A stretch of 64,000 bases of DNA from an uncultured Candidatus Saccharibacteria bacterium (GCA_964555185.1 CAZKRD010000004.1:755-64754); one strand, 5' to 3'; positions 2-18,332 are shown, numbered from the stretch's first letter. Numbers and translations: made by a program. Notes: generated by a model not told the origin, from the letters alone.

Positions 2-3000
2 GCCTATACCCTCTATCTCTATGACACTAACCAATCTCACCTCCTCCATGTCCTATGGAACGAAGACGACTCTGCTCACCGCATCCTAAACCTCGCTGTT
101 GGAGGCGGCAATAGAGCATTCACCCTCAATGAAGACCTCACCATCGGAGACGGCCAGAATGTTACGATCACCGCCTTAGGCCAAGCCAACACCCTAACCT
201 TAAATGAGTCCTTTACGATTGGAGACGGCAATGACGGCACCCTCACTTACTCCGCCTCCTCCAAGACCCTAACCGTAGAAGATGACTCCTATATCAACCA
301 AGACCTAACCACAGACGCCAACCCGACATTCGCAGGACTAAACGCTGATGCTATTAACATTGGCATCACTTCTTCTTTTGAAATAGACACTGATTCAAAT
401 ATCCTTCTTCTAGATTCAAACTCAGGTACAGTCAAGATAGATGATGACCTTTACATCACCGGACAAGTTAAAGGAGACTCAAGCTTCGCATTCGGCGGAG
501 CAGACACGGAAAGCTACAACGTAATTGGAGACACCACTACAAACATGGGTCATTCGCTATCAAGCGATGACGACCTATATATAGAAGGCGATTTAGAGGT
601 AGACGGTTCTGCTTGGTTTGATGCTTCAGTGACAATCGCAGACAAACTGACAGTAGATGGAACTACTCTTCATGTTAATTCTGATACTAACCGAGTGGGG
701 ATTGGGACGGTGAGTCCTGCAAAAAACTTAGATATTTATGATGCTACTGGAGCAGAACTTTTATTAGTGCGAGACGATTCTTCTACTGAAATTAACAATT
801 TACTTGGTCAAATATTATTTGATGCAAATGATGGTTTAAGTTCTGTAGATGCTTCAGTAATGATTAGAGCTTATGCTTCTGAAGAACATATTACAATTAA
901 TAAAGGAGGATATTTAACATTTGAAACAAAACGAGATAATGTAAACGATAATCAACCAGCTAATGAGTGGATGAGATTAACATCAGCAGGATTTCTCGGC
1001 ATAAACACCACACTTCCTGACCGCAAACTAGATGTTTTAGATGCCTCTAACCCCCAACTCCGTCTAACTTACACAGACGGGAGTGTGTATTCCGAATTTC
1101 AAACAGACTCTGGTGGAGACTTAACCATAGATATGTCGGGAGGTAATTTGCTCTTAGCTGATGCAGATACTTTTGCTGTGGGTGGAACATTAGGACAAGC
1201 CTATAATGTAATTGGTGATACTACTACGGGAATGGGTCATTCTTTATCTTCAGATGATGACTTATACCTTGAAGGAGATTTGGAAGTAGACGGCACAGCA
1301 TGGTTTGACGGAGGAATCACGACCCCAAGCCTTGCCATCTCCGGATTAACTGCTTCAAGACTGGTTGCTACAGACGCAGCTAAAAACATTGTCTCTTCTG
1401 ACCTTTACGCCTGGGTAACCGGTACAGCCAATCGAGTCACAGTCGCGGATGATGCAGACGGAACAATCACTCTCTCTGCTCCTCAAGATATCCATACAGC
1501 AGCCAACCCAACATTCGCAGGCTTAAACGCAGACGCGATCAACATCGGAATCACTTCTTCTTTTGAAATAGACACTGATTCAAATATCCTCCTCTTAGAC
1601 TCAAGTTCAGGCACAGTTAAAGTAGACGACAACCTCTATATCACCGGACAAGTTAAAGGAGACTCAAGCTTCGCATTCGGAGGAGCAGACACGGAAAGCT
1701 ACAACATAATCGGAGACACCACCACAAACATGGGCCACTCCCTAGCCTCTGATGATGATTTATATATAGAAGGAGACCTGGAAGTGGACGGTTCTGCTTG
1801 GTTTGATGCTTCGGTCACAATCGCAGACAAACTGACAGTAGATGGAACTACTCTTCATGTGAATTCTGATACTAATCGGGTGGGGATTGGGACGACGGGA
1901 CCAACAGCGAAGTTGGAAGTTTCTGGTGGGAATTTGAAAATGACAAGTGGAAATATAGCTTTGAATGGTAATTGGTTAAGTAAAGATGGTGATAATGAAG
2001 GACTCTACATTCAAAGTAATGGTTATATAAATAATTTCGGCGAGGGTGCAACTCAGAATTTTGTCATAATAGGGACTGCATTATTCCGTGGTGCAACTTT
2101 TAGTATTGAAAATGCAAGTGCTAAGAATATTCTTGTGACATCTGGAAATAATATAAATCTGGTGACTGCCAGCGGCGGCAACGTCGGCATAAACACCGTA
2201 GGCCCCGACCGTAAACTAGACATCTTAGACGCCACTAACCCCCAACTACGCCTAACCCACACAGACGGGAGTGTTTATGTGGATATGCAAGCAACTTCGG
2301 CAGGACATTTAAGTATTTCAGGAAGTGGGGGGAATGTGGGAATTGGGACAACAACACCTACTTCAAAACTTCATATATTTTCACCTGATGATGCAGATTC
2401 GTGGAATAGTGCCCAACCATTAGTGGAAATAACTAATCTTGATGTAAATGCAACCGATGCAGCTGCTTTACTTGTTCGTGGTGGAGCAAATAATGTAGTT
2501 GGTCTAACTTTTCAAGTGCAAGATTATAGTGGGAATACAGATTTTGTAATAACAGGAAACGGCAACGTCGGCATTGGAACTGCGAGTCCCAATCTTAAAG
2601 TTGAATGGGCAGACGCAACAAGAAGTGGATTTTTGGATTTTGGCTTAGGAGGAGTAACAATAGGAGGAGCAGCAGGAAATAATTTAGCATTATGGACTAA
2701 TGGCAATCAACAAGTTACTATAGACACCAACGGCAACGTCGGCATCGGCACCACTGCTCCAGATAAAATTCTTGAAATCAACAAATCCACAGGAGGAGAG
2801 ATCCGCCTTACCTACAATGACTCTGATGGTAGTGCTGCTAACTATGCTGATTTCAGTGTAGGTAGTGGTGGAGATTTAACTATAGATGCCTCTGGTGGAA
2901 ACTTGCTTTTAGCAGATAGTGATACTTTTGCTGTGGGTGGAGCGTTAGGACAAGCCTACAATGTAATTGGAGACACGACCACGAACATGGGCCACTCCCT

Positions 3001-6000
3001 AGCATCAGATGATGATTTATATATAGAAGGAGATCTGGAAGTAGACGGCACAGCATGGTTTGACGGAGGAATCACCACCCCAAGCCTTGCCATCTCCGGA
3101 TTAACTGCTTCAAGACTGGTTGCTACAGACGCAGCTAAAAACATTGTCTCTTCTGACCTTTACGCCTGGGTAACCGGTACAGCCAATCGAGTCACAGTCG
3201 CGGATGATGCAGACGGAACAATCACTCTCTCTGCTCCTCAAGATATCCATACAGCAGCCAACCCAACATTCGCAGGCTTAAACGCAGACGCCATCAACAT
3301 CGGAATCACTTCTTCTTTTGAAATAGACACAGACTCAAACATCCTCCTCTTAGACTCAAGCTCTGGCACAGTCAAAATAGATGATGACCTCTACATCACC
3401 GGACAAGTTAAAGGAGACAGCTCCTTCGCCTTTGGCGGAGCAGACACCCAAAACTACAACGTAATTGGAGACACCACTACGAATATGGGTCACTCCCTAG
3501 CATCAGATGATGACCTCTATATTGAAGGAGATTTGGAAGTAGACGGTTCTGCCTGGTTTGATTCTGCAATTACTGTAGCAGGAGACATCACTCTTACGGG
3601 ACATCTCTTACCTTCTGCTAATGATCAATATGATCTAGGTTCAGATAGTCTGCGCTGGAGAGACCTCTACCTGGGCCCTGGTTCTGTCCATATGGGTGTT
3701 TCTGGCAATGAAGCCATAATCGGCTATGACACTACCTCAAACTACATCACCTTTGACCCAGATGGAGACACCACAGCAGAGATGGTGATTGATGATTCTG
3801 GGAATGTGGGGATTGGGACGACTGGGCCAGACAGAAAGCTAGACATCATAGACTCATCTAACCCTCAATTAAGGTTATCTTATGTCGATTCCAATGCTTA
3901 CGCAGATTTTCAAGTAGAAAGTAACGGATATCTTGGCATACTACCTTCTGGTAAGAATGTCGGCATCGGCACCACTAGTCCCAGCGCCCTTCTCCATGTA
4001 GCTGAAAGTAGAACTTCAGGTACGATCACAAAACTGTCTTATCCTTCTGCCACCACTCTAGCTGGCAGTGTGATTGGCACTGATATTGATCTTTTAACCA
4101 ATCTCACCCCCGGATCCTATGATATTACAGGATTGCAAATCACAATGCCGTCAACAGGCACGGGAGATCATAGCTTTGCCAAGTTTATTGAAGGTTCCAC
4201 TACGCTTTATGACTTTAATACTGTAACTGCCCAATTCGATGTACCAACTTCATTTAATGCCGCTGGCGATGTTTCTTTATCCTATGATTTAATTTTGACC
4301 AATGCCAATGCTAGCTATATTAAATCGAACGGCTCTTTATATATTGAGGCTGGTGATCCAAACCAAAATTATGGTTTGACTCTATCAGCCAATGGATCGG
4401 GCAGAGTTATTGTTAGTGACAATTTTTATGTTACTGGCCCTGTTCAGGGAGATTCTGCCTTCGCCTTTGGCGGAGCAGACACCCAAACCTACAACGTAAT
4501 CGGAGACACCACGACAAACATGGGCCACTCCCTTGCTTCCGATGATGATCTCTACATTGAAGGAGACCTGGAAGTAGACGGTTCTGCTTGGTTTGATGCT
4601 TCTGTTACAATTGCAGACACACTGACTGTAGCTGGAGACATCCTTGCTACTTCTGGTGTCCATATTGGTGTAGATACTACTCCTAATCTTATTGATGACG
4701 CCACTAACGGATCAGATTCTACCACTCTCTACATTGGCAATAAGATTATTAGCACAGAGGCCTCTGATGCCAGAAAAAAGGATGTGATTGGCACAACCGG
4801 GAGAGGTCTCCAAGACATCCTGGAGATGAAGGTAGTAGACTTTACCTGGAAGCCAGACTTTGACATTGATTCCAGCACGATTAACACTGGGATACTGGCC
4901 CAAGAGATGTATCAGATCCTGCCCTCTGTAGTTAGAGTACCCCCGGATGAAGAGACCGGCCTATGGTCTATTCAGTACAACAACATGGTTCCTGTCCTCG
5001 TCAGAGCGATCCAGGAACAACAGGGACAGCTTTCTGTACTTGATGATGAAATGTTATTGGTTAACGATCAGATTATGGAGCTTTCTGGGATTATTTCTGA
5101 TAGTATGCCGGCTTTTTCCGCATTAGATTTAGAGATTGATGGTTTAGGCGAGGAACTGGCGGATTACGGAGCGCAGATTGATGATTTAGAGGTGAGAGTG
5201 GGCGACTTAGAGGGAGGTTCTGATACTGTTCCAGAAACAGACCTTGGAGATAATGGCGACACAACCTCCGAATCTGAAGAGGTGAACCCAGAGTCTTTGC
5301 AAGAGACCTTGCAGACTCTGGTTGACAGCCTGGACGCTCTTTCTGGTTTGACCAGTCAGCTTGGCATTTTAACTGATTCTATCCTAACTGTGATGGAATC
5401 CAATCAAGTGAACACAGCAAGGATTGAAGAACTAGAAGCAGAAGTAGGAGAATTAAAGCAGATTGCGAGGATTGTGGACGAGAAAGTAGTGATTGGCACA
5501 CCCGATCAGTATTTGGTTTTGGACGCGGCAAGCGGACTTGAGATTAACAGTGAGAATTTTGTTCTGGATCCAGACGGCAATGTGACGATCGCTGGTGAGC
5601 TTAACCTGCTTTCCGGCAGGATTAATTCAGAGTCCGGGGTTTTAGAGCTAAATCCGGGTGAGAATGAAGAAGGGGAAAGCAAGGTTGTGGTCCGGGGAGA
5701 CTTGGAAGTGGAAGGAGACTTGTTGGTTTTAGGAACTTCAACAGAACCGGCAGTAGAGGAAGTGGAAGGAGAGGAGGAAGAGAGGGATTCGATCACAGGC
5801 GTGGCTGTAATCTCCGCGGGCGACACCGAGATTGTGGTCGACAATGATAATATAAGCGCAGACTCTTTAATCTATATTACACCCGTGTCGCCTACTCAAG
5901 GCCAGGTCCTGTTTGTTGCGGAAAAGCGCGAGGAAGAGGTTTATGATCAAGATCGGAAGGAATGGTTGGCCCAGGGCTTTACCGTAGCGGTTGAAGAAGA

Positions 6001-6049
6001 GGTGGGGGAGGATATTGAGTTTAATTGGTGGATTGTGGATTCAAACTAA
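2..6049 (+). CDS. Giant repetitive surface/tail-fibre-like protein, 5'-truncated by the window edge (the frame is open from nt 2; the ORF-track Met at 545 is internal). It has repeated Gly/Thr-rich motifs (NVGIGTTxP, GDTTTNMGHSLASDDDLYIEGDLEVDG) and an internal Peptidase_S74-like intramolecular chaperone domain, followed by an ~380-aa acidic coiled-coil tail
   Basis: Translating frame 2 from nt 2 gives no stop codon, and nt 300-545 encode the same repeat seen downstream. The segment SDARKKDVIGTTGRGLQDILEMKVVDFTWKP...GILAQEMYQILPSVVRVPPDEETGLWSIQYNNMVPVLVRAIQEQ matches the endosialidase/tail-spike chaperone (PF13884-like) consensus, including a Ser..Lys dyad. Confidence 0.6.
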   Translation, partial: AYTLYLYDTNQSHLLHVLWNEDDSAHRILNLAVGGGNRAFTLNEDLTIGDGQNVTITALGQANTLTLNESFTIGDGNDGTLTYSASSKTLTVEDDSYINQDLTTDANPTFAGLNADAINIGITSSFEIDTDSNILLLDSNSGTVKIDDDLYITGQVKGDSSFAFGGADTESYNVIGDTTTNMGHSLSSDDDLYIEGDLEVDGSAWFDASVTIADKLTVDGTTLHVNSDTNRVGIGTVSPAKNLDIYDATGAELLLVRDDSSTEINNLLGQILFDANDGLSSVDASVMIRAYASEEHITINKGGYLTFETKRDNVNDNQPANEWMRLTSAGFLGINTTLPDRKLDVLDASNPQLRLTYTDGSVYSEFQTDSGGDLTIDMSGGNLLLADADTFAVGGTLGQAYNVIGDTTTGMGHSLSSDDDLYLEGDLEVDGTAWFDGGITTPSLAISGLTASRLVATDAAKNIVSSDLYAWVTGTANRVTVADDADGTITLSAPQDIHTAANPTFAGLNADAINIGITSSFEIDTDSNILLLDSSSGTVKVDDNLYITGQVKGDSSFAFGGADTESYNIIGDTTTNMGHSLASDDDLYIEGDLEVDGSAWFDASVTIADKLTVDGTTLHVNSDTNRVGIGTTGPTAKLEVSGGNLKMTSGNIALNGNWLSKDGDNEGLYIQSNGYINNFGEGATQNFVIIGTALFRGATFSIENASAKNILVTSGNNINLVTASGGNVGINTVGPDRKLDILDATNPQLRLTHTDGSVYVDMQATSAGHLSISGSGGNVGIGTTTPTSKLHIFSPDDADSWNSAQPLVEITNLDVNATDAAALLVRGGANNVVGLTFQVQDYSGNTDFVITGNGNVGIGTASPNLKVEWADATRSGFLDFGLGGVTIGGAAGNNLALWTNGNQQVTIDTNGNVGIGTTAPDKILEINKSTGGEIRLTYNDSDGSAANYADFSVGSGGDLTIDASGGNLLLADSDTFAVGGALGQAYNVIGDTTTNMGHSLASDDDLYIEGDLEVDGTAWFDGGITTPSLAISGLTASRLVATDAAKNIVSSDLYAWVTGTANRVTVADDADGTITLSAPQDIHTAANPTFAGLNADAINIGITSSFEIDTDSNILLLDSSSGTVKIDDDLYITGQVKGDSSFAFGGADTQNYNVIGDTTTNMGHSLASDDDLYIEGDLEVDGSAWFDSAITVAGDITLTGHLLPSANDQYDLGSDSLRWRDLYLGPGSVHMGVSGNEAIIGYDTTSNYITFDPDGDTTAEMVIDDSGNVGIGTTGPDRKLDIIDSSNPQLRLSYVDSNAYADFQVESNGYLGILPSGKNVGIGTTSPSALLHVAESRTSGTITKLSYPSATTLAGSVIGTDIDLLTNLTPGSYDITGLQITMPSTGTGDHSFAKFIEGSTTLYDFNTVTAQFDVPTSFNAAGDVSLSYDLILTNANASYIKSNGSLYIEAGDPNQNYGLTLSANGSGRVIVSDNFYVTGPVQGDSAFAFGGADTQTYNVIGDTTTNMGHSLASDDDLYIEGDLEVDGSAWFDASVTIADTLTVAGDILATSGVHIGVDTTPNLIDDATNGSDSTTLYIGNKIISTEASDARKKDVIGTTGRGLQDILEMKVVDFTWKPDFDIDSSTINTGILAQEMYQILPSVVRVPPDEETGLWSIQYNNMVPVLVRAIQEQQGQLSVLDDEMLLVNDQIMELSGIISDSMPAFSALDLEIDGLGEELADYGAQIDDLEVRVGDLEGGSDTVPETDLGDNGDTTSESEEVNPESLQETLQTLVDSLDALSGLTSQLGILTDSILTVMESNQVNTARIEELEAEVGELKQIARIVDEKVVIGTPDQYLVLDAASGLEINSENFVLDPDGNVTIAGELNLLSGRINSESGVLELNPGENEEGESKVVVRGDLEVEGDLLVLGTSTEPAVEEVEGEEEERDSITGVAVISAGDTEIVVDNDNISADSLIYITPVSPTQGQVLFVAEKREEEVYDQDRKEWLAQGFTVAVEEEVGEDIEFNWWIVDSN
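1141..1900 (+). repeat. Intragenic near-identical repeat block, copy A, within the giant gene. Related copies lie at ~300-710, 2893-3560 and 4440-4630
   Basis: About 285 nt at 1290-1575 match 3040-3325 with only ~2 mismatches. The motif GDTTTNMGHSL(A/S)SDDDLYIEGDLEVDG recurs 6 times, at nt ~545, 1230, 1728, 2982, 3483 and 4517. Confidence 0.8.
2893..3560 (+). repeat. Intragenic near-identical repeat block, copy B
   Basis: Direct nucleotide comparison with 1141-1900. Confidence 0.8.
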
Positions 6050-6063
6050 GATTTACAATTATT

Positions 6064-6262
6064 CTAATTATACTAATTGTTCTAATTATTCTAAGAAATG
6101 ACCAAGCCCCAATGACCAAATTAATAGAATTATTCTAATTAACCTAATTATTCTAAACAAATCCCAATAACCAATGACCCAAAATTAATTTTATTTTTTG
6201 GGGTTTGGGACTTAGTCATTATTTAGAACAATTAGTATAATTAGAACAATTAGTATAATTTT
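6064..6262. mobile_element. MITE-like non-autonomous element with 18-bp terminal inverted repeats (attatactaattgttcta ... tagaacaattagtataat, the right TIR tandemly doubled). Internal ccaatgacc modules and a central imperfect palindrome
   Basis: The left TIR at ~6067-6084 is the exact reverse complement of tagaacaattagtataat at 6225-6242 and 6243-6260. Confidence 0.55.
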
Positions 6263-6270
6263 CTTCCCTT

Positions 6271-9200
6271 ATGTTGCTAAAAATAAAAAAACCTATTTGT
6301 TGGTTTAAAAAACTAAGCAAACGAGTTCTGTTTTTAATTATCTTAGGCATCTTCTTTGTCGGTGCCGGAGTTTTTACGATCGTAGCGGTTAATAATCGCG
6401 GCAACGAACCGGTTGCTTGGTGGCGGTTAGACGAGGGCTATGGCACAAGCGCTTATGATGCCAGCGCAAACTCCAACACAGGCACGATAATCAATGCTGT
6501 TTGGAAAAACGAACCCTATTGCAAAACAGGAAAATGCCTCTACTTTGACGGAACCAATGATTATTTATCAATAATTAATGATTCAACACTCAATCCAACA
6601 GAAGGAGTAACAATAGAAACATGGGCAAGACCCAACAACTTTGACTCCTCTGCCTCCTTAATTAAAAAAGACCAGCAATATTCATTAGACATTGCTCAAG
6701 GAGTGCCTAACTTCAGAGCTTACGCCAACTCAAGATGGTATTCTGCCATAGGCGGTGAAAGGGCTTGGCTTTTCAGAGAGCCAGCTGACAACCAGCTTAC
6801 AGGCGATGGCGGAGCCACCTTCACAGAAGCTTTTGGTTACCGAGCCCTAACCCCTGCAAACCTCACAGCAGAAAAAGGAGTACTAATTACTGACGCTGAC
6901 GGCAGTGGCTCTGGAAGTGGCGACAACTTACAATACAGCCGTGGAAGCCAGAGCACCCCCGATGGAACTAATGTTGTCTACGAAAACTTTGATCCAAACC
7001 AAGGCACTTTGGAGTTTTGGGTCAGACCTAATTGGGATGGGGATGATGGGTTAAGGCATTATATAACTCAAGGGTGGCATGACACTAATAATCGTTTTCA
7101 AATACGTAAAGATATTAGCACTAATGATTTATATTTTTCTTATTACGCCAACAGTTCTGGGGCTGACGTAGGGGCTTATGATATATCATCTTGGAACGCA
7201 GGAGTTTGGCACCATATTATAGGAGTGTGGGATAAAAATAATGTGACCAATGGCACCGATAATATAACTTTATATGTTGATGGTTCAAGGATAGCTGGTA
7301 ATGTCACTGACCCTGGACAGGCAGAAGGAGTAGATACTGATTTTCATATTGGCTCTGGCAGAGACGGTGCTGATCAATTCAACGGCACAATTGCTGGCAG
7401 AATATTAAATCGGCCACTGACAAGCACTGAAGTCACGGCTCTGTATAATTCTGGGGCTGGCTCAACCGACACCTTTACCGTCACCCCAGACACGGTTTGG
7501 ATGGGGACTTACTCTGACGACTCCACAACAGCCACATATTGGCATACTGGCAAAAGCGTGTCCGCAATCGCAGACGGAGCAAACGAAGACACCCTGACAA
7601 CCGCCAGCGGAGCAGACAACTCCTTCAGCGATAACGACCGCGTCGTAGTTTACGACGGCACGGGCTACAAAGTAGAGGGTTGTGTGGACGGCGCGCCAAG
7701 CGACACCAGCGTTGCAGTTGACAACTGCGCCGACGCTGACCCAGGAACCACTGAAAATATAGGTGTTCATGCTGAACTAGATTCTTCTACTCCTGAATAT
7801 TTCTATAATGCCGCTGCCTCTATGAAGCCAGGCGATGGCGTTGATTTCTATGTTGCCGCGTGGGTAAATCCAGCAGTGGTTGGTACATATATTATTTTTC
7901 AATCAGGTCTGCCTTATGCTTGGGTAGATCGTGCTGGTTATTATTTTTACATGTCTGGTGATAAAATTGGAATTCGTCTTGATGATGAAACTGATACGGG
8001 TGGTGGTGCGTTTACTTCAGAAGCTTGTATTGTAGCTGATAAGTGGCAGCACATAGCAGTGAGAGTAGATAGGGATGATTTAGCTTATTTTTTCTGTAAT
8101 GGTTATGCCGCAGGAACTGCAAATGTATCAGGGTATGATGGTGACTTATCTGATGCTGCTATTACTAGGATTGGAACAGGTTATAATGGAGCAGGTAATC
8201 CGCAATATAGTTTTGATGGTAAGATTCGTGACGTTAGAATACAGGTAGGTGGAACACAGCCCTCAGATGCGCAGATTTTGTATCAAGCAACGCATCCTTT
8301 GGATTATACCGCAAGTTCATGGACACTGAATGGTTCTCGAGGATATTACACTATGACAGACTCTGATATGTCTTCTGGTTTGACAGCTTCAGGAGATGCC
8401 ATTGCTTTGTTAACTGCGGGTGGTGGTAATCCTAGGGAACAAGAAGCGTTTGTTAGCAAAAACCTGATTCAAGACGGGTCAATGGAAAACGGGGGAATAG
8501 GGGAGTGGCAAGTCGGCGATGTAGCAACAACTCTGGCCAAAGATACCACAACAATAAAATACGACAACCAATCATTAAAAATCACTAACGCTGACGCCAG
8601 TCAGGCGTTTGCTCGCCAAAGCATTACCACAGTCGCAGGCGAGGATTATTATTTTAATGGTTGGTTTTATGGTCCCTCTACAGTCAACGGCGCAAGTCAA
8701 TTAGTTGATGTTGATGCTACTGCGGCATTAGGTGTAACAGCCACACAAGCAGGCGCTATTGCCTCAACATGGAAAGAGGTGGATTTTTGCTTTGAAGCTG
8801 GCGACACCTCTACTGACATTGATTTGGGCAGTGGTTCTGTTATTGATACTGAAATTGGCTATTGGGATTCTGTAAAGCTCCTCCCCAACCTTATTGATGA
8901 CGGTGGCATGGAGGGGGCTTATACTAGCTGTGGCGCATCACTTACATTGTCATCAGTCAATACTACGTTTACATCAACTAGAGTAACAGATGGCTCTGCC
9001 TGGACTTTGTCCAGCGTCATTTCAGGATATATAGCCATAGCCAGTGGTGGTTCAAAAGGAATGATTACTGTTGTTGACGACGGTTCTGATTATGTAGATG
9101 TAGAAAATTGGGATGCTGGAACACCAAGCAATGGCGAAACCGTACGTATTTATTATGCGCTACCTGACGGATGGTCAACTTCAATTTGTAATTCTGCGAG

Positions 9201-12200
9201 CAAACCTCGTCGACTTGAAGGTCGTACTGGGAGTTATGCTCAACAACTTAGAATGGGCGCCGCTAGCTGTACCCATTATTTGTATCAAGACATAGCTGGG
9301 TATGAAGATTTTAAAGGTAAATATCTGACCTTAAGCGCTTGGGTTAATGGTAACTGGAGTATTGGCGCTGGCTCTTGCACACCTCCTTATATTATGATTG
9401 ATGATGGTGTGTCAACTGTCTCGTCAGAAACAAAGAGCGTTGATGATGGTTGGGAGAAGTTAATAATCACTAAGCTGATAAGTGATAGCGCAACCAAAAT
9501 CAGAGTAAGATTATATGTGCCTTATTATATTTATTCAACATGGGATGATATTTCTCTTGTTGTCCTTGATGATATTTCTCCAAGTACGGCTACGCCGTCA
9601 ACCGAGGCAAATTCTTTTGGCACAGGTAAGTGGAGCGACACGAACGGCGCATTTCTGGTTGACGGCGGAGATACTTTAACATACACACAATCTGGCAATC
9701 TTGACAACGAGGCAGGCACAGTGGCTTTTTGGGTGAAACCAAATGGCTACGACGAATCAACTCCAGTGGACAAATACTGGATTGACACCCGCGACTCAAC
9801 CCCAGACCAAGGGTTTTATGTGTATATGAACTCAACCGAAGACGATGTGGTATTTGCCGGCAATGACAGCGTTAATGTTTGGGCGGCCACCTCAACAGCA
9901 ATTGATTGGAGCGTTAATGCCTGGCACCACATAGCAGTAACCTACGACTGCTCACAAGCAGGTGGCTCTGACGAAGTCTACTTATATATTGATGGCTCCG
10001 TAGCGGCTTCAGATACTTCAGAAACCTGCGCTTCTTGGACTCTGCCAACTAATATGTATGTAAATAGTGATTATGCTGGAGCAAACCAAGGAGATGCTTA
10101 TCTTGATGATATTAGAACATATGACTCAGTGCTTTCATCAACAGAAATTACTGATATTTATAACAACACAAAATTGCGGACTGTTTCTGCCAACGAATGG
10201 GCGCATTTAACAGGGGTTTATTCAAAAGACGACGCTAATCTAAAAATTTATAAAAATGGGGTGTTGCAGAATACAGTGGCTGTGGGCGCCAGCTACGACT
10301 TAGCAACCAGCTCAAATAATTTAATGCTCGGCGAAGCATTTTTCGGATTTTTAGACGAGCCCCGCATATACGACTATGCTAGAACCGCTGACCAAGTTAA
10401 AGCTGACTATGTTGCTGCTTCGTCTTTGCGTGGAGCTTCTGGCAGAGCTGTAACAGTTGGGGAAGGGATTGACTCAAGCGAAGGGCTTGTGGCTCACTGG
10501 GCAATGGACGAGTCCGCGTGGGACGGCACTACAGATGAGGTTGTTGACTCCTCTGGCAATGCCAACCACGGCGTGCGTGTCGCCGATGCCAACACCACAA
10601 GCACCGCAAAATACGGCAGAGCAGGGACTTTTGATGGCACAGGGGATTATGTGGATATTGGAATCGGCCCCACTGCGGTAAACGTGGTAGCTTTTTGGGC
10701 AAATCCAGGCACCACATCAGATTATTTTATAGACTTGAACGGCTCTGCCTATATTAGCGTATCATCCGGGACTTTATCGGCAACAGGATTTACTGATCCA
10801 ACAATTTATGTAAATGGCGCAGTGTCTAATACTATCGTAGCTAGCGCGTGGCAGCACATTGTTGTTACAACAAATACTAGTATCAATGCCAGTGATTTGG
10901 ATATAGGCAGATTAGAAGGAACAGATGATTATCAAGGGGAAATTGATGATGTTAAGATGTATAGCGTTATTCGTTCAGCCAGTCAAATCCGCAAGGATTA
11001 TGAAACCGGCCCGCCACCTGACCTGCACTTAAAAATGGATGAAAACACCGGCGATACGGTTTATGATACAGCAGGAGAGAATGATGGGATTTTGGGTACT
11101 GGCTCTGGTGTTGATGTAAGGGATCCTTCTTGGGCTCCTGGTAAATATGGCAGTGGCTTAAAGCTTGATGGTTATGATGATCGTATAATAGTAAGCCATG
11201 GAAGCGCTTTTGAATTTGGAAGGGGGAATTTTACGATTGCCTTTTGGGCAAAAATAATCGACAATATTCGTATGGGAAAAGACTATTATTATGGTGAAAG
11301 CCCAGCGGGCGAGAATAGGTGGGCGATTCACTCAGCTGGCTATGGCCAAGGGATTATGTGGCAGTCTGCTAACTGCGGGGATGGCTCCAATGATGTCATG
11401 GTGGGTGCTGGCAGTAGTGGCGATTATGCTGACGGCGAGTGGCGTCATTTTGCTTTTGTTAAAAAGGATCAGATAGGATATTGGTATATCAATAGCGTTG
11501 ATAAAACCAGTTGGCGGTCTGATTCTTTTGCTGATTTTGGTTGTTCTTTGAGTAATGACAGAACTTTAGTAATGGGAAGATATACCAGATATCCTGTTGA
11601 TGGAACTGATTATATGGATGGTTCTTTTGATGATTTTAGAGTTTATAAATATGCCCGGACGCAGAAGCAGATTATGGAGGATATGAACGCAGGCCACCCA
11701 GCAGTTGGCTCGCCTGTTGGCTCGTATGTCGGCTATTGGAAGTTTGATGAGGGCTATGGCACTACTGCTTATGATAATTCTGTTAATGATAATGATTTAA
11801 CCCTTTCTAACGAATCCTGGGAAACAGATTGCAAGTTTGATAGTTGCTGGGACGGAGATGGCACAGAATATGTTTATCGCAATGATGATCCTGACTTTGA
11901 TTTTGGGGCTACTGATGACTTCGCAATCACGGGCTGGTTTAAACACGATACGATCGCTGATAACCCAGATTATCTAGTGGTAAAGAATAATGGCAAGGGC
12001 TACAAAATCTATATGGATTCTGACGGCGACCTTGCCTTTGGCATTGATGATGATGCCAGCTTTGACCCTGATGATGTAGTCGGCGATGATCAATCAAAAA
12101 ACTATGATGATAATACCTGGCACCATTTTGCCGCAATCGCAAACGATACTACTTCAATCAAACTCTATGTTGACGGTATCAAGATAGATGAAGACACCAC

Positions 12201-13827
12201 AATCGAAGCCTCTGGCACCCTAGCAAATGCCGACCCTCTCTACATCGGAGTAGATGATGACGGCTCTTCCAATCCTTGGGATGGTGAGATCGATGAACTT
12301 AAGATCTACCGTTTTACCTTGACGCCAGAAGAGATCAAACAAGAATACAATCAAAGCAAAAGCCTTGTTTTGGGTTCAAAGTCAACAGAATCTGACGGCA
12401 CCACTCCATCCAATTCAGCTTCAAGGGAGTACTGCGTCCCTGGAGACACAACATTTTGTGATCCGCCAGTGGCGCACTGGCGGATGGATACAAAAGGAGG
12501 GGATACGGCTTATGATTTAGCCGGATCGAATGACGGCACCTTGGGCAGCGGCGCTGGCGCTGACTCTGCTGATCCTGTGTGGCGACATGAAGACCGCTGC
12601 CACGAAGCGGGCTGTCTTGATTTTGATGGGGTGGATGATTATGTGGATGCGGGGAACGATGATTCTTTGACTAATATCAGTGAACTTACAATTTCAGCTT
12701 GGATAAATAGCCCTCTTCTATTTGAGGAATCTGCTGGCTCTGATTTAGGGTCTATTGTAGACAACGATGATAATGAAAATTATCAAATGAGAGTTAATGA
12801 GGATGGTCAAGTAATTCTTAATCTAGGTGGCGCATGGAATGCGTGTAGAACTGCAGGTGGAGCTATAACAGCAAATACTTGGCATCATCTTGTAGGCACA
12901 TACGATGGCTCAAATTGTGAAATTTTTGTTGATGGAATTAGTAAAGATACTGGAACAGGTGGAGCATTAATTGATTCTGCAGAACCTGTTTATATTGGCA
13001 AAAGAAAAGATACGGCTACTGAACGTTTTAATGGTATCATAGACGACGTCCGTATATACGACTACGCCCGAACACCAGCCCAAATCGCCTGGGAGTATAA
13101 TAGGGGAGCGCCTGTTGGCTGGTGGAAAATGGATGAGGGTCAGGATTCAGAAACAACCTGCAACGCCACTGGCTCAACTGTGTATGACTACTCTGGCAAC
13201 GGCAATAACGGAACCCTTTCACTCCAACCTGCTGGCAACACAGCCACTACAACTGCATGGTCCGAAGGCAAATACTCCTGCGCCCTCGACTTTGACGGCA
13301 CTGATGATTATGTGGAGATCGGAGATAGTGACTCTTTAGATAACACAAACCAATTGACAATTTCTACTTGGGTTTATCCAGAATCTATTTCCAATAGAGG
13401 TATTTTGGCAAAAAGAGTTGCTTTTCAGGATAATCACTCATATGACCTTTATTTTGCTTCAAGTAAATTATATGTTGATATTGATAGTAATAATGATAGA
13501 TTTAGTAGTAATAAAATTTTCAGCACCAACCAATGGTATCATATTGTGGTTGTGTATGATGGAACATTAGCATCTGCTCAGCGGGCTAAAGTTTATGTAG
13601 ATGGTGTTTTGGACAAAACGGCAACTGAAACAAGCACATCTATTCCAAACTACGCCTCGAATTTTTATATTGGGGTTTTAAAAACAGACCCTGGGACAAC
13701 TTGGGAATTCGACGGTCTCATAGACGACGTCCGCATATACAACTACGCCCTAACCCCGTTGCAAATTCGCACACTTTACAACGAGAATTCAGCGGTGAGA
13801 TTTGGACCTACCGAGGGATTGCCGTAA
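6271..13827 (+). CDS. Giant membrane-anchored multi-lectin protein. N-terminal TM helix, at least 9 LamG-like (Laminin_G_3/concanavalin-A-like jelly-roll) domains and two CBM_4_9-like modules
   Basis: The unit W(W/K)(L/F)DEGxG..aYD.SgN.n.GT.....G..G.al.FDGtdDYv...WhHiavtYD...lYvDG....iDdvRIY(D/N)YA(R/L)T..qI recurs about 9 times. NLIQDGSMENGGIGEWQ and NLIDDGGMEG look like carbohydrate-binding-module starts. The hydrophobic stretch at aa 18-40 is a signal anchor. Confidence 0.75.
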   Translation: MLLKIKKPICWFKKLSKRVLFLIILGIFFVGAGVFTIVAVNNRGNEPVAWWRLDEGYGTSAYDASANSNTGTIINAVWKNEPYCKTGKCLYFDGTNDYLSIINDSTLNPTEGVTIETWARPNNFDSSASLIKKDQQYSLDIAQGVPNFRAYANSRWYSAIGGERAWLFREPADNQLTGDGGATFTEAFGYRALTPANLTAEKGVLITDADGSGSGSGDNLQYSRGSQSTPDGTNVVYENFDPNQGTLEFWVRPNWDGDDGLRHYITQGWHDTNNRFQIRKDISTNDLYFSYYANSSGADVGAYDISSWNAGVWHHIIGVWDKNNVTNGTDNITLYVDGSRIAGNVTDPGQAEGVDTDFHIGSGRDGADQFNGTIAGRILNRPLTSTEVTALYNSGAGSTDTFTVTPDTVWMGTYSDDSTTATYWHTGKSVSAIADGANEDTLTTASGADNSFSDNDRVVVYDGTGYKVEGCVDGAPSDTSVAVDNCADADPGTTENIGVHAELDSSTPEYFYNAAASMKPGDGVDFYVAAWVNPAVVGTYIIFQSGLPYAWVDRAGYYFYMSGDKIGIRLDDETDTGGGAFTSEACIVADKWQHIAVRVDRDDLAYFFCNGYAAGTANVSGYDGDLSDAAITRIGTGYNGAGNPQYSFDGKIRDVRIQVGGTQPSDAQILYQATHPLDYTASSWTLNGSRGYYTMTDSDMSSGLTASGDAIALLTAGGGNPREQEAFVSKNLIQDGSMENGGIGEWQVGDVATTLAKDTTTIKYDNQSLKITNADASQAFARQSITTVAGEDYYFNGWFYGPSTVNGASQLVDVDATAALGVTATQAGAIASTWKEVDFCFEAGDTSTDIDLGSGSVIDTEIGYWDSVKLLPNLIDDGGMEGAYTSCGASLTLSSVNTTFTSTRVTDGSAWTLSSVISGYIAIASGGSKGMITVVDDGSDYVDVENWDAGTPSNGETVRIYYALPDGWSTSICNSASKPRRLEGRTGSYAQQLRMGAASCTHYLYQDIAGYEDFKGKYLTLSAWVNGNWSIGAGSCTPPYIMIDDGVSTVSSETKSVDDGWEKLIITKLISDSATKIRVRLYVPYYIYSTWDDISLVVLDDISPSTATPSTEANSFGTGKWSDTNGAFLVDGGDTLTYTQSGNLDNEAGTVAFWVKPNGYDESTPVDKYWIDTRDSTPDQGFYVYMNSTEDDVVFAGNDSVNVWAATSTAIDWSVNAWHHIAVTYDCSQAGGSDEVYLYIDGSVAASDTSETCASWTLPTNMYVNSDYAGANQGDAYLDDIRTYDSVLSSTEITDIYNNTKLRTVSANEWAHLTGVYSKDDANLKIYKNGVLQNTVAVGASYDLATSSNNLMLGEAFFGFLDEPRIYDYARTADQVKADYVAASSLRGASGRAVTVGEGIDSSEGLVAHWAMDESAWDGTTDEVVDSSGNANHGVRVADANTTSTAKYGRAGTFDGTGDYVDIGIGPTAVNVVAFWANPGTTSDYFIDLNGSAYISVSSGTLSATGFTDPTIYVNGAVSNTIVASAWQHIVVTTNTSINASDLDIGRLEGTDDYQGEIDDVKMYSVIRSASQIRKDYETGPPPDLHLKMDENTGDTVYDTAGENDGILGTGSGVDVRDPSWAPGKYGSGLKLDGYDDRIIVSHGSAFEFGRGNFTIAFWAKIIDNIRMGKDYYYGESPAGENRWAIHSAGYGQGIMWQSANCGDGSNDVMVGAGSSGDYADGEWRHFAFVKKDQIGYWYINSVDKTSWRSDSFADFGCSLSNDRTLVMGRYTRYPVDGTDYMDGSFDDFRVYKYARTQKQIMEDMNAGHPAVGSPVGSYVGYWKFDEGYGTTAYDNSVNDNDLTLSNESWETDCKFDSCWDGDGTEYVYRNDDPDFDFGATDDFAITGWFKHDTIADNPDYLVVKNNGKGYKIYMDSDGDLAFGIDDDASFDPDDVVGDDQSKNYDDNTWHHFAAIANDTTSIKLYVDGIKIDEDTTIEASGTLANADPLYIGVDDDGSSNPWDGEIDELKIYRFTLTPEEIKQEYNQSKSLVLGSKSTESDGTTPSNSASREYCVPGDTTFCDPPVAHWRMDTKGGDTAYDLAGSNDGTLGSGAGADSADPVWRHEDRCHEAGCLDFDGVDDYVDAGNDDSLTNISELTISAWINSPLLFEESAGSDLGSIVDNDDNENYQMRVNEDGQVILNLGGAWNACRTAGGAITANTWHHLVGTYDGSNCEIFVDGISKDTGTGGALIDSAEPVYIGKRKDTATERFNGIIDDVRIYDYARTPAQIAWEYNRGAPVGWWKMDEGQDSETTCNATGSTVYDYSGNGNNGTLSLQPAGNTATTTAWSEGKYSCALDFDGTDDYVEIGDSDSLDNTNQLTISTWVYPESISNRGILAKRVAFQDNHSYDLYFASSKLYVDIDSNNDRFSSNKIFSTNQWYHIVVVYDGTLASAQRAKVYVDGVLDKTATETSTSIPNYASNFYIGVLKTDPGTTWEFDGLIDDVRIYNYALTPLQIRTLYNENSAVRFGPTEGLP

Positions 13828-13871
13828 TAACGATTATATGCGAATTTGCAACGGGGCTAACCCAAACCAAA

Positions 13872-13900
13872 CCCCGTTAGAGGTTTACCTCTAAACGGGG
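13872..13900 (+). terminator. Strong stem-loop (ccccgttagagg-ttta-cctctaaacgggg) in the 3' UTR of the giant LamG gene. It is part of nested inverted repeats that include a 17-bp IR spanning the stop codon (13757 ccccgttgcaaattcgc / 13838 gcgaatttgcaacgggg). No clean U-tract follows
   Basis: Palindromes read directly from the sequence. Confidence 0.35.
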
Positions 13901-14038
13901 CAAATTAAGAATGTATTTAACGAGGGCTCCGTCGTCCGCTTCGGCCCAACAGAAGGATTGCCTTGATAAAACAATTTTTAAATGCCTTGTTTTGGTTAAT
14001 TTTTCTTGTTAAAGTTCAGTTAAACAAAACAATAATAT

Positions 14039-17000
14039 ATGTTTGCAAAAGTTAATCCCAGGCCCAATTTTCCAAAAATCGAAAAAAAGATTTTAGATTA
14101 TTGGGCGAAAAATAAAATATTTAAAAAAAGCGTAGACAAGAAAGCAAGCAAAGGCAACTACGTGTTTTTTGAGGGTCCGCCAACAGCAAATGGCAAACCC
14201 GGCGTGCATCATATAGAGGCGCGGGCTTTTAAGGATTTGTTTCCGCGCTATAAAACAATGCGAGGGCACAGGGTAGTAAGGAAAGCGGGCTGGGACACGC
14301 ACGGATTGCCGGTTGAATTGGAGGTTGAGAAGAATTTAGGGTTCTCGGGCAAGCGCGACATTGAGGAGTATGGGATCGAGAGGTTTAACAGGAAATGTAA
14401 AGTTTCAGTCTGGAAATACAAAGAGGATTGGGAAGAGATGACCCGCCGGATTGGTTTTTGGCTGGATATGGAAGATCCTTATGTTACTTTTGATAATGAT
14501 TATATTGAATCGGTTTGGTGGATAATAAAGCAGGTTTGGGATAAAGGATTGCTCTATCAGGGCCATAAGGTCGTCCCCTATTGTCCGCGGTGCGGAACCG
14601 CGCTTTCGAGCCATGAGGTGGCGCAGGGGTATAAGAAAGTGAAAGAGGAGAGCGTGTTCGTTAAGTTCAAAATCAAAGATCAAATCTCAAAAATCAAAAA
14701 TACAAATCAAAAGTCAAAAATTAAAATCACTTCGCGATTTTTGAATGGAAAAGAGGATGTTTATTTTTTAGCCTGGACCACGACGCCTTGGACTCTGCCA
14801 GGGAATTTGGCATTGGCTTTGGGGGAGGATATTGATTATGTTTTAGTAGAAGTAGGAGCAGGCCTTGTGCCTGCCCTGCATCGGAATGACGCAGAGCCTG
14901 CCCAGGGCGACCACAAGGGTCGCCCCTACAGAGAATGTTTCATTTTGGCCCGAGAGCGGTTGGAAATTTTAGAGGGGAAGTATAAGATAATTAAGGAATT
15001 TAAAGGTAAGGATTTGGCAGGGACCCCCTATGAGCCGTTGTATCCGGTTTTTAGCGGCGAAGAGAGCGAGCATATCTACCATTCTGTTTTGGCCGATTTT
15101 GTAACCACAGATGAGGGCACGGGGATTGTCCATACGGCTGTGATGTATGGGGAGGATGACTATCGGTTGGGAGAGAAGTTGGGGCTGCCGAAAAGACATA
15201 CAGTAAACTTACAAGGTAAATTCAAAGTCAAAAATCAACCTTCGAGTCCTGAGCCTCAGGTCGAGGGAAAGTCAAAAATAGAAGCTGCTTTGCAGCTTTT
15301 GAGAAAGATAGAGGGCAAATTTGTTAAGGATGCGGAGGGTGATATAGTTTCTGATTTAAAGAAGCGCGGATTGTTTTATAAATCCGAGATGTATGAACAT
15401 GATTATCCGTTCTGCTGGCGGTGCAAGACGCCGCTTTTATACTATGCGAAGAAGAGTTGGTTTATTGCGATGAGTAAATTGCGTAAAAAACTAAAGGAGA
15501 ATAATGAAGAAATTAATTGGGTTCCAGACTATCTCAAACACGGCCGTTTTGGTAAATGGCTGGAGGAGGTCAAGGATTGGGCTGTATCGAGGGAGAGGTA
15601 TTGGGGAACGCCGCTGCCGGTTTGGCAATGCCAAACTGGTAATTTCCAATTTCCAATTTCCAATTTCCAAACAAATTACAAATTACAAATTTCAAATTCC
15701 AGACAGTGTGGTAATGTTAGAGTTATTGGTTCTGTAAAAGAGTTAGAAAAATTGAGTAATAGGAAAATTGGGGATTTGCATCGGCCGGATATTGACAAGA
15801 TTAAGTTTAAATGTGAAAAATGCGGCGGGGAGATGAGGAGAGTATTGGAGGTAATTGATTGTTGGTTTGATGCGGGTTCAATGCCGTTTGCCCAGTATCA
15901 TTATCCATTTGAAAATAAGGCAAAGATAGACCGAGGAGAGCAGTACCCTGCTGATTTTATTTGCGAGGCAATCGACCAGACCCGAGGCTGGTTTTATACG
16001 CTTTTGGCGATTTCAACGCTCTTAGATAAGGGCACTTCTTATAAAAATGTGATTTCTTTGGGTCATGTTTTGGACGTTCGAGGCCAAAAAATGAGCAAAT
16101 CGCGTGGGAATGTGGTTGATCCTTTTAAAGCTTTAGAGCAATATAGCGCAGATGCTTTGCGCTGGTTTTTCTATACCGTGAATAAGCCGCAGGAATCAAA
16201 GAATTTTGACCCGCAGATTTTGCGCGATATTGTCTCGCGGTTTATTTTGACGCTGTGGAACTCGTATTCTTTTTTTGTGACGTATGCGAATATTGATAAA
16301 TTTGGTAGGGGCGACCCTAAGTGGTCGCCCGGCACGAGATTTTACAGAAGAGGGCGGCCACACGGGGCCGCCCCTACGGGGAATATTTTGGATAAGTGGA
16401 TTATTTCTAGATTAACAGGGTTGAACAAAAAAATTGTTCAATACTTGGATGATTACAATGTCTTGCGATCAGCCAAAGAGATTGAGAAGTTTGTTGACGA
16501 TTTATCCAATTGGTATATTAGGCGTTCACGCCGCAGGTTTTGGAAGAGCGAAGACGATCAGGATAAAACAGAAGGATATCAAACCTTGTATTTTGTGCTG
16601 GTCAATTTAAGCAAAATCTTAGCTCCTTTTATGCCCTTTGTTTCGGAAGAGATTTATCGCAACTTGACCGGAGACGATTCAGTGCATTTAGCCGCCTTTC
16701 CGGAAATAGATCAGAAATTATTTGATCAGAAGCTGAATCAGCAGATGGAATTTGTCCGTCAGGTTGTGGCTTCGGGCTTAAGCTTAAGGGCAAAGGCGGG
16801 GATTAAAGTTCGCCAGCCTTTAAGTAAATTCAAAGTGCAAAGTGCAAAGTGCCTGCCTTCGCCAAGGCTTCGGCAGGCAGGCAAAGTGACCGCAGGTCAT
16901 CTTGAGCGTCAGCCAAGGATCTCACCTCCTTTGTTAGAGTTGATTAAAGAAGAGCTGAATGTGAAGGAGGTTAAGTTTGTTTCTGGGCTTAAGAAGGCGA

Positions 17001-18210: not shown

Positions 18211-18332
18211 TCAATTTTCAATAACCAATGAATAAATTTTCAAACAAAACCATTTTCGCAGGTTTGAAAATTAAATCATTGAACCTTCGGATTTGATTGA
18301 AAATTGAGATTTGTAAATTGAAAATTACCTTT
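18211..18332. repeat. AT-rich palindromic element, same family, with core ttttcaaacaaaaccattttcgcaggtttgaaaatt
   Basis: The core is the reverse complement of the core at 57200-57240, so the same element is present in both orientations. Confidence 0.75.

Follow-up and report, generated by a model that had tools for sequence, protein, structure and literature searches.

An internal S74 domain between a phage-type fibre and a conserved C-terminal module in a giant, predicted membrane-anchored protein of the Candidate Phyla Radiation

Introduction

A stretch of DNA of 64,000 nt deposited as an uncultured Candidatus Saccharibacteria bacterium (GCA_964555185.1 CAZKRD010000004.1:755-64754; the whole stretch is called the window below) opens with the 3' part of a giant gene, the product of which carries a domain of the S74 or intramolecular chaperone auto-processing (ICA) type behind a long phage-tail-fibre-like body and in front of several hundred further residues. 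The locus raises the question of what a domain known from the ends of phage fibres does in the interior of a cellular protein, and what the residues behind it are. A first-pass annotation had proposed a cellular surface filament of phage-fibre architecture with an internal S74 domain, and we asked whether the domain is intact, whether the extension is peculiar to this protein and how the whole might work. As judged from the sequences, the S74 domain stands where a phage-derived fibre cassette meets a constant C-terminal module found mostly in the Candidate Phyla Radiation (CPR), and its internal position is a trait of the family and not a one-off.

The internal S74 domain

In frame 2 of the plus strand no stop codon precedes the one at nt 6047-6049; the frame spans 2,015 codons from nt 2 and continues past the left edge of the window. 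The open frame of at least 2,015 aa reported at first reading was confirmed as the 3' end of a gene of 13,143 nt and 4,380 aa, of which the window holds the C-terminal 46%.

The S74/ICA domain (nt 4763..5056, plus strand) was recognised by Pfam, by alignment to the ICA domain of MYRF (7dc3) and by a family profile. The hidden Markov model (HMM) PF13884 matched aa 1588-1644 (nt 4763-4933) with E 5.2e-8 and 33.5 bits against a cut-off of 22, over model positions 1-57 of 58, so that the assignment made earlier from motifs stands on a significant match. The motifs are SDARKK at nt 4763-4780, GILAQEM at nt 4889-4909 and VPVLVRAIQEQ at nt 4988-5020. The Ser-x4-Lys dyad that had been claimed is present in SDARKK: the predicted nucleophile is Ser1588 (Ser3953 of the full protein; codon 4763-4765), the predicted general base is Lys1593 (Lys3958 of the full protein; codon 4778-4780) and the predicted scissile bond is Ala1587|Ser1588. 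With the single sequence as query the best PDB match was the ICA domain of MYRF, 7dc3, where the Ser aligned with the first residue of the ICA motif (Ala in the crystallised chain) and the Lys with the Lys of that motif. A small family profile (A5) compared with solved ICA domains matched 6f45 (8.8e-12), 8jov (3.4e-8), MYRF 7dc3 (1.3e-7) and 3gud (3e-4).

The terminal position that is typical of phage S74 domains, without strictly defining them, was not found here, since 427 residues follow the Ser compared with 117-138 in the canonical homologues P0006-P0010. After the Pfam match 371 residues remain, close to the about 380 given in the first-pass annotation, and the internal position of the domain was borne out. 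By its sequence the internal S74 domain looks functional.

The closest S74 relative, P0004 (JGI, 575 aa; 56% identity), has a different extension after the domain: a small FNWW-like β domain with the end ...DISFDWIAL is accompanied by an Ig-like domain and by several acidic repeats that contain Cys (ALNYDPEATEDD...C.Y). Tails of other kinds can thus also follow an internal S74 domain.

The C-terminal module

From the Ser to the C-terminus the protein is acidic (D+E 22.5%, net charge -75). The ICA domain is followed by a conserved tail of roughly 360 residues, in which two long predicted helices joined by an acidic linker come first, then a β-rich stretch, another acidic linker and, at the end, a β-sandwich. 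The helices (aa 1659-1737 and 1763-1815, with the first linker between them; nt 4976..5446, plus strand) were taken from AlphaFold2 (AF2) secondary structure with a predicted local distance difference test score (pLDDT) below 50. The first of them continues the last helix of the ICA domain, the helical region is kept in P0001, P0002 and P0011-P0016, and the helices presumably form a trimeric coiled coil. The β-rich segment (aa 1821-1910; nt 5462..5731, plus strand), with short repeated strands predicted by AF2 at low confidence, corresponds to profile positions ~180-240 and is matched by many family members. The earlier description of the tail as acidic and coiled-coil was correct for the charge and, in part, for the helices, and left out the β-rich stretch and the confidently folded terminal β-sandwich of what is a conserved module.

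The terminal β-sandwich of about 85 aa (nt 5789..6046, plus strand), which ends ...DIEFNWWIVDSN, is the most widespread piece of the family-defining module. A first AF2 model of the C-terminal 475 aa, made from 6 sequences, had a mean pLDDT of 42 and was usable for the last ~85 residues only, while the terminal domain modelled from a 48-sequence alignment reached a mean pLDDT of 88 with a core of 95-98. Its structural neighbours in BFVD were tailspikes of the pectate-lyase and K1-lyase-C types (E 3.7e-4 and 7.5e-4); the best Foldseek match in the PDB, at E 0.017, was suggestive, with nothing at E<=1e-3. According to the model the domain has the fold of tailspike C-termini and may share it with H-type lectins.

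Searches with the tail gave no match in Pfam (E<=10), NCBIfam (E<=1) or PHROGs (E<=0.01), and no sequence relatives in 50,697 phage genomes (tblastn) or in two IMG/VR pattern scans. The fibre and S74 parts have phage homologues and the tail has none by sequence, which supports the placing of the seam at S74.

Distribution and plan of the family

The tail profile was searched against 1.84 billion cluster representatives (50%-identity clusters), which revealed a family of at least 1,453 clusters at E<=1e-3, with 618 at E<=1e-10. Members range from about 100 to 6,346 aa, and the module sits at their extreme C-terminus: in nearly all of the 150 matches listed, no more than about 10 residues lie beyond the aligned part. 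The consensus of the last ~85 residues reads ...NATAGxAxLPAGxTE...SLIYVTP...QNQVLYVK...FxVAID...DxxFNWWII, and the C-terminal signature of the family, (D/E)(I/L)xFNWW(I/V)(I/V), is found in the end of the window protein. No description or published name of the FNWW tail or of this CPR architecture was found in the searchable literature (subscription journals lay outside the search), where general statements on large surface proteins were the only ones met.

Relatives in GTDB belong to Doudnabacteria, Beckwithbacteria, Microgenomates, Saccharibacteria and other Patescibacteria, together with a few metagenome-assembled genomes (MAGs) labelled Gammaproteobacteria/Pseudomonadales (L007, L009, L012-L015, L018 and L020), Bathyarchaeia (L008) or Nanoarchaeia (L022). 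These non-CPR labels could reflect mis-binned CPR contigs, wrong labels or horizontal transfer. One predicted protein, P0003 (483 aa, on a Logan contig of 1,986 nt), in which the FNWW tail is fused to the N-terminus of a class-I tRNA synthetase, was left out of the profiles as a probable assembly chimera.

Among the tail-bearing representatives of at least 700 aa, 25 of 77 carry an ICA domain by iterative jackhmmer. The initial S74 HMM had given 18 of 77, since neither that model nor Pfam recognised the divergent SSLRYK variant of the closest homologues, among them the Doudnabacteria protein L004. Pfam confirmed several of the family ICA domains. Every one of the 33 family ICA domains keeps Ser-x4-Lys, with 358-716 residues behind it; the conservation of the dyad argues for selection on the cleavage chemistry. 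In each of P0011-P0016, the closest of the full-tail homologues tested, an ICA domain immediately precedes the coiled coil, the Doudnabacteria SSLRYK protein included.

Bodies between the conserved ends are variable and may be a phage-type fibre or made of LamG, collagen or LVIVD repeats; in L012 a LamG domain and collagen repeats occur together with the FNWW tail. About half of the full-length relatives, among them P0017, P0048, P0100, P0139 and L006:2792-10456, begin with a SAM-like (core-binding) domain of the tyrosine-recombinase type (Phage_int_SAM_1, 34.2 bits in P0100), and 26 of 27 such proteins have exactly one transmembrane helix at aa 70-300. The same layout was found in a 2,555-aa protein of a complete Beckwithbacteria genome; the window protein shows a weak HTH_17-like domain instead of the SAM-like one. 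L010:1030-4158 (a Patescibacteria MAG; Intein_splicing 42.1 bits, aa 45-93), P0092 and P0098 begin neither with the SAM-like domain nor with the helix but with a Hint/intein C-terminal splicing domain, which by sequence adds a further type of autoprocessing domain to the tail family. The plan deduced from these sequences is a small cytoplasmic domain, one transmembrane helix, a variable giant body and a constant tail, with an ICA domain at the seam in a third of the long members.

N-terminus and fibre body

The window protein conforms to the N-terminal layout of its family. Residues 11-59 of the full protein gave a full-length match to a helix-turn-helix (HTH) family, HTH_17, which is weak (19.4 bits) and below the Pfam cut-off, and aa 117-141, the sole strongly hydrophobic segment of the full protein, form one predicted transmembrane helix. 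A virion or baseplate attachment domain was not found at the N-terminus, where the HTH-like domain and the helix stand instead. A fold of DNA-binding type would thus stand at the cytoplasmic end of a giant surface protein.

A charged linker leads from the helix to about aa 640, and the fibre part, about 3,300 residues of phage-tail-fibre-like repeats, extends from there to about aa 3952. Its C-terminal portion (aa 2366-3952 of the full protein; nt 2..4762, plus strand) consists of Asp/Gly/Thr-rich repeats, predicted to be extracellular, and was recognised by the open frame, PHROG and tblastn matches and weak Bactofilin-type β-helix matches. Comparison with phage tail-fibre models showed that the shaft matches phrog_9942 (E 4.4e-15, aa 1241-1678) and phrog_18345 (E 3.4e-13, aa 704-1003), and tblastn found 176 phage records annotated as tail fibre or PblB, all below 60% identity and the listed ones at 22-36%. 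The Bactofilin-type matches indicate β-helix-like repeats. Bactofilin itself (PF04519) was rejected, since its whole-protein score of 33.8 bits sums weak repeats and 0 stretches are individually significant; the Pfam matches MAPKK1_Int and EMC7 were rejected as sums of weak repeat matches with no single significant stretch.

The shaft contains a signature repeat of 27 aa, GDTTT.MGHSL.SDDDLY.EGDLEVDG. A regular-expression scan found the six copies in the window that the first-pass annotation had counted, beginning at aa 176, 405, 571, 990, 1156 and 1501: the first, GDTTTNMGHSLSSDDDLYIEGDLEVDG, lies at nt 527..607 and the others at nt 1214-1294, 1712-1792, 2969-3049, 3467-3547 and 4502-4582, all on the plus strand. 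The full gene has 14 copies. The GNVGIGT-type motifs noted earlier are likewise present, as five strict GNVGIGT/GNVGINT motifs and variants.

Comparison with known systems

In phages the homologous domain, also called the C-terminal intramolecular chaperone domain, follows the fibre and has the Ser-x4-Lys dyad (K1F endosialidase, the GA-1/phi29 neck appendage 3gud, the long tail fibre distal subunit 6f45 and T5 pb1). The likeness extends to the helix that runs into a coiled coil and, by analogy, to a presumed role in trimerisation, stalk nucleation and self-removal. The phage domain ends the polypeptide, whereas here it is followed by a module not found in phages; the phage fibre sits on a virion, whereas the present one is predicted to be membrane-anchored and its gene lies among housekeeping genes.

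MYRF and MrfA (PMC3742443, PMC3828593, PMC8326128) resemble the window protein in being cellular, membrane-anchored and equipped with an internal ICA domain between two large parts, and MYRF is the established precedent for an internal ICA domain (PMC3742443). The order of parts differs. In MYRF a DNA-binding domain is followed by the ICA domain, the transmembrane helix and a lumenal tail, and cleavage frees the DNA-binding trimer from the membrane. The fibre protein has the HTH-like domain, the transmembrane helix (aa 117-141), about 3,800 predicted extracellular residues, the ICA domain (aa 3953) and the tail; the ICA domain would thus lie across the membrane from the N-terminal domain, and its cleavage cannot release that domain. 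An Ndt80-type DNA-binding domain was not found with Pfam.

The terminal β-sandwich was compared with the C-termini of tailspikes and depolymerases (K1 lyase 7w1c, Pam1 7eea, K64-1 S2-4 9k4a and LKA1 gp49 4ru4) and with the H-type lectins HPA (2ccv) and discoidin (2w94). It has no sequence similarity to them (no Pfam match and no phage tblastn match) and, unlike in tailspikes, a domain predicted to cleave itself and a coiled coil stand between it and the fibre. The procollagen C-propeptide and the T4 fibritin foldon are C-terminal trimerisation units that set the register of their chains, and that of procollagen is removed later by a separate protease. The resemblance to them is one of function without homology, removal in the present case being by predicted autocleavage; within the family, collagen repeats precede this tail in L012.

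A proposed assembly pathway and its alternatives

We favour, with moderate confidence, the explanation that the protein is a cell-anchored trimeric phage-type fibre of a CPR bacterium, the C-terminal module of which brings the chains into register and is then shed by autocleavage. The N-terminal domain would remain in the cytoplasm, with the single helix anchoring the chain and the N-terminus inside, and everything after the helix would be exported. The C-terminal composite of ICA domain, coiled coil and β-sandwich would leave the cell last and put three chains in register, and the ICA trimer, in the manner of phage tailspikes and MYRF, would serve as the nucleus on which the upstream β-helical stalk folds. 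The chain would then be cut before Ser3953 by the ICA domain, a trimer of about-428-residue fragments (ICA and tail) would be shed, and the mature fibre would remain on the cell. Chaperone logic of this kind, with release after cleavage, is reportedly described by Schulz et al. 2010.

Both the C-terminal chaperone logic and the release after cleavage are established for phage endosialidase and MYRF (PMC3742443, PMC8326128). Very large Patescibacteria proteins have been reported to be preferentially surface-targeted and to carry adhesion domains (PMC13059738), and by analogy with these adhesin candidates contact with a host cell is the most likely role of the fibre. Several points weigh against this explanation. 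About two thirds of the long family members have the tail without a detectable ICA domain. In these the tail must do its work as part of the uncut chain, and a permanent role at the tip accounts for this no less well than a disposable chaperone does. Trimerisation, cleavage and export of the fibre are inferred, the role in host attachment is argued purely by analogy, the HTH_17 match lies below the Pfam cut-off and the AF2 models have pLDDT below 50 for the ICA and helical parts. Lastly, the number of repeat copies comes from a single scaffold with exact repeats of up to 425 nt, and the exact length of 4,380 aa depends on it.

The main rival, possible though clearly less probable, holds that the ICA domain trimerises and nucleates without cutting, or that the halves stay bound after the cut, and that the lectin-like β-sandwich is a permanent, distal ligand-binding head. 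The two thirds of the family that carry the tail without an ICA domain speak for such an adhesive tip, but an invariant Ser and Lys(+5) in 33 of 33 ICA domains is hard to explain without catalysis, and characterised ICA systems as a rule release after cleavage. A receptor-binding tip is moreover expected to be variable, whereas the terminal domain is among the most conserved parts across unrelated bodies and phyla.

Equally tentative is the proposal that the FNWW tail is a new class of C-terminal assembly or sorting module, mostly of the CPR, for giant trimeric surface fibres and that the third of the family with an ICA domain are extracellular polyproteins yielding, by one cut or by two as in P0040 and P0109, an anchored fibre and a free trimeric lectin-like mini-fibre, which might serve in capping, host marking or matrix binding. 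The polyprotein idea by itself, that the precursor serves for delivery and ICA cleavage frees a trimeric mini-fibre (ICA base, coiled-coil shaft, β region and lectin-like head) as a functional product that is secreted or caps the tip, seems unlikely to us. The fragment after the Ser does have a complete fibre-like layout of its own, and the 358-716 residues behind the family ICA domains exceed the 117-138 of the canonical P0006-P0010. Two ICA domains in series, each with Ser-x4-Lys, were found in P0040 (aa 65 and 281 of 997) and P0109 (aa 3373 and 3605 of 4164), where they would cut the chain into three pieces. However, most family members could not cleave off this tail, and shedding a trimer would be costly for a genome of about 0.7 Mb.

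Repeats and assembly of the gene

The first-pass annotation had described near-identical repeat blocks within the gene, ascribed them to recent duplication and warned of assembly collapse. Self-blastn and per-position comparison defined copy A at nt 1111..1807 and copy B at nt 2866..3562 (both on the plus strand), with a true offset of 1755 and 89.2% nucleotide identity over 697 nt (95.3% at the amino acid level; 51 synonymous and 11 non-synonymous codon differences). The near-identical block is real, nt 1290-1575 and 3045-3330 being 99.3% identical over 286 nt with an exact core of 215 nt (1321-1535 / 3076-3290), but its second copy had been placed 5 nt off, and nt 1290-1575 and 3040-3325 compared as first written are 24% identical. 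Across the gene the long repeats are 82-93% identical in DNA and 95-99% in protein, and their differences are overwhelmingly synonymous and in third positions (for example, 50 synonymous against 2 non-synonymous codons), which indicates that the copies are not young and are kept by purifying selection. The idea of recent duplication is thus right in part only: these are old copies, and the identical tracts of 200-425 nt embedded in them suggest gene conversion or may in part be an assembly effect. Exact repeats of up to 425 nt sit in copies with 75-90%-identical flanks, between nt -1991 and +363 relative to the window start and at nt 1321-1535 and 3076-3290 of the window, and form a mosaic like that left by gene conversion.

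The complete gene was located via the neighbouring 2,518-aa gene on a 706,972-bp ENA metagenome scaffold, on which the ENA gene call is 4,380 aa; a search of an index of 5.8 billion proteins with the C-terminal 475 aa had not returned the protein itself. An exact-match scan of metagenome contigs found SDBT01016631.1, from the Loki's Castle deep-sea-sediment assemblies (PMC6401483), which overlaps the upstream sequence at 100% and provides the 5' end of the gene; joined to the scaffold it gives 13,143 nt and 4,380 aa, identical to the ENA call. Two independent Logan assemblies are 100% identical to nt 4558-15253 and 4573-15253 of the window, which makes the sequence solid from the last repeat through S74 and tail to the genes downstream. 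The SDBT contig and both Logan contigs end within repeat copies, and the number of repeats in mid-gene is thus supported by one scaffold. The concern about collapse is accordingly justified for the copy number of the middle repeats and unfounded for S74 and tail.

That the giant frame, or the number and order of its repeats, arose from short-read mis-joins through long exact repeats is, as a whole, very improbable. The exact repeats (up to 425 nt in the gene, 215 nt within the window), the three contigs that stop inside them and the identical cores in less similar flanks, which could partly be assembler choices, are what such an artefact would produce. Against it, the 5' end (start, transmembrane helix and first repeats) and the 3' end are each matched at 100% by independent contigs, the 13,143-nt frame is uninterrupted and contains no N, the copies diverge mostly synonymously as real coding repeats do, and relatives of 2,000-6,300 aa share both ends. 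The only genuine doubt concerns the mid-gene copy number.

Genomic neighbourhood and origin

Upstream of the fibre gene lie genes for Lgt, a DsbA-like protein, L20, IF3, SmpB, arginyl-tRNA synthetase and a GT4 glycosyltransferase; downstream are those for a LamG giant, isoleucyl-tRNA synthetase (IleRS), RecO, a DUF11 protein, TGT, further aminoacyl-tRNA synthetases and others. No phage structural genes were found within 11 kb upstream or more than 50 kb downstream, and the earlier statement that no other phage genes are nearby agrees with the housekeeping genes on both sides. The proposal of a cellular surface filament built on phage-fibre architecture is likewise upheld by a shaft homologous to phage fibres, these flanking genes and the predicted N-terminal anchor.

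The LamG giant (2,518 aa; nt 6271..13827, plus strand) has nine Laminin_G_3 domains (Pfam 1.4e-160) and an N-terminal hydrophobic anchor, and is a syntenic neighbour: in the Ca. Doudnabacteria MAG L005 the end of a tail-bearing giant gene, a LamG giant and IleRS follow in matching order, the IleRS being 57% identical. Because this gene order is common to both, the source organism is identified from sequence as a Doudnabacteria-like member of the CPR/Patescibacteria, and a scaffold of about 0.7 Mb is in keeping with a genome of that kind. The pair of fibre and LamG genes followed by IleRS thus recurs in L005, and the two giant surface proteins may therefore work together. A 623-aa protein with DUF11 (CLIPPER) repeats and an N-terminal hydrophobic segment (nt 18297-20168 of the window, plus strand) is a third putative surface protein within 20 kb. 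Over nt 1-43700 of the window nearly all sizeable open reading frames lie on the plus strand and the GC skew is positive throughout, which is consistent with one replichore and a strong gene-strand bias.

The PHROG matches and the 176 phage records of fibre and S74 and the tailspike-like fold of the terminal domain might point to a tail-fibre gene of a phage or prophage, or to phage DNA inserted recently. This reading is largely refuted by the housekeeping flanks without phage structural genes, an N-terminus with HTH-like domain and helix in place of a virion-attachment domain, the synteny with the Ca. Doudnabacteria MAG and a tail not found in phage collections.

Implications

The CPR/Patescibacteria are thought to live attached to hosts, and the locus offers a concrete design, with counterparts in more than a thousand protein clusters. 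As far as its parts can be predicted, a small domain in the cytoplasm and a single membrane helix are followed by a giant body that can be exchanged and by a constant C-terminal module without a name in Pfam, NCBIfam or PHROGs. The conserved ends provide a handle to find CPR surface fibres despite their variable bodies. With this protein a cellular case of an internal ICA domain from a prokaryote stands beside the eukaryotic MYRF and, if the tentative reading of the tail as an assembly or sorting module is true, the combination of an N-terminal DNA-binding-like domain, a transmembrane helix and an ICA domain would represent a bacterial pool of parts from which proteins of the MYRF type could have been put together.

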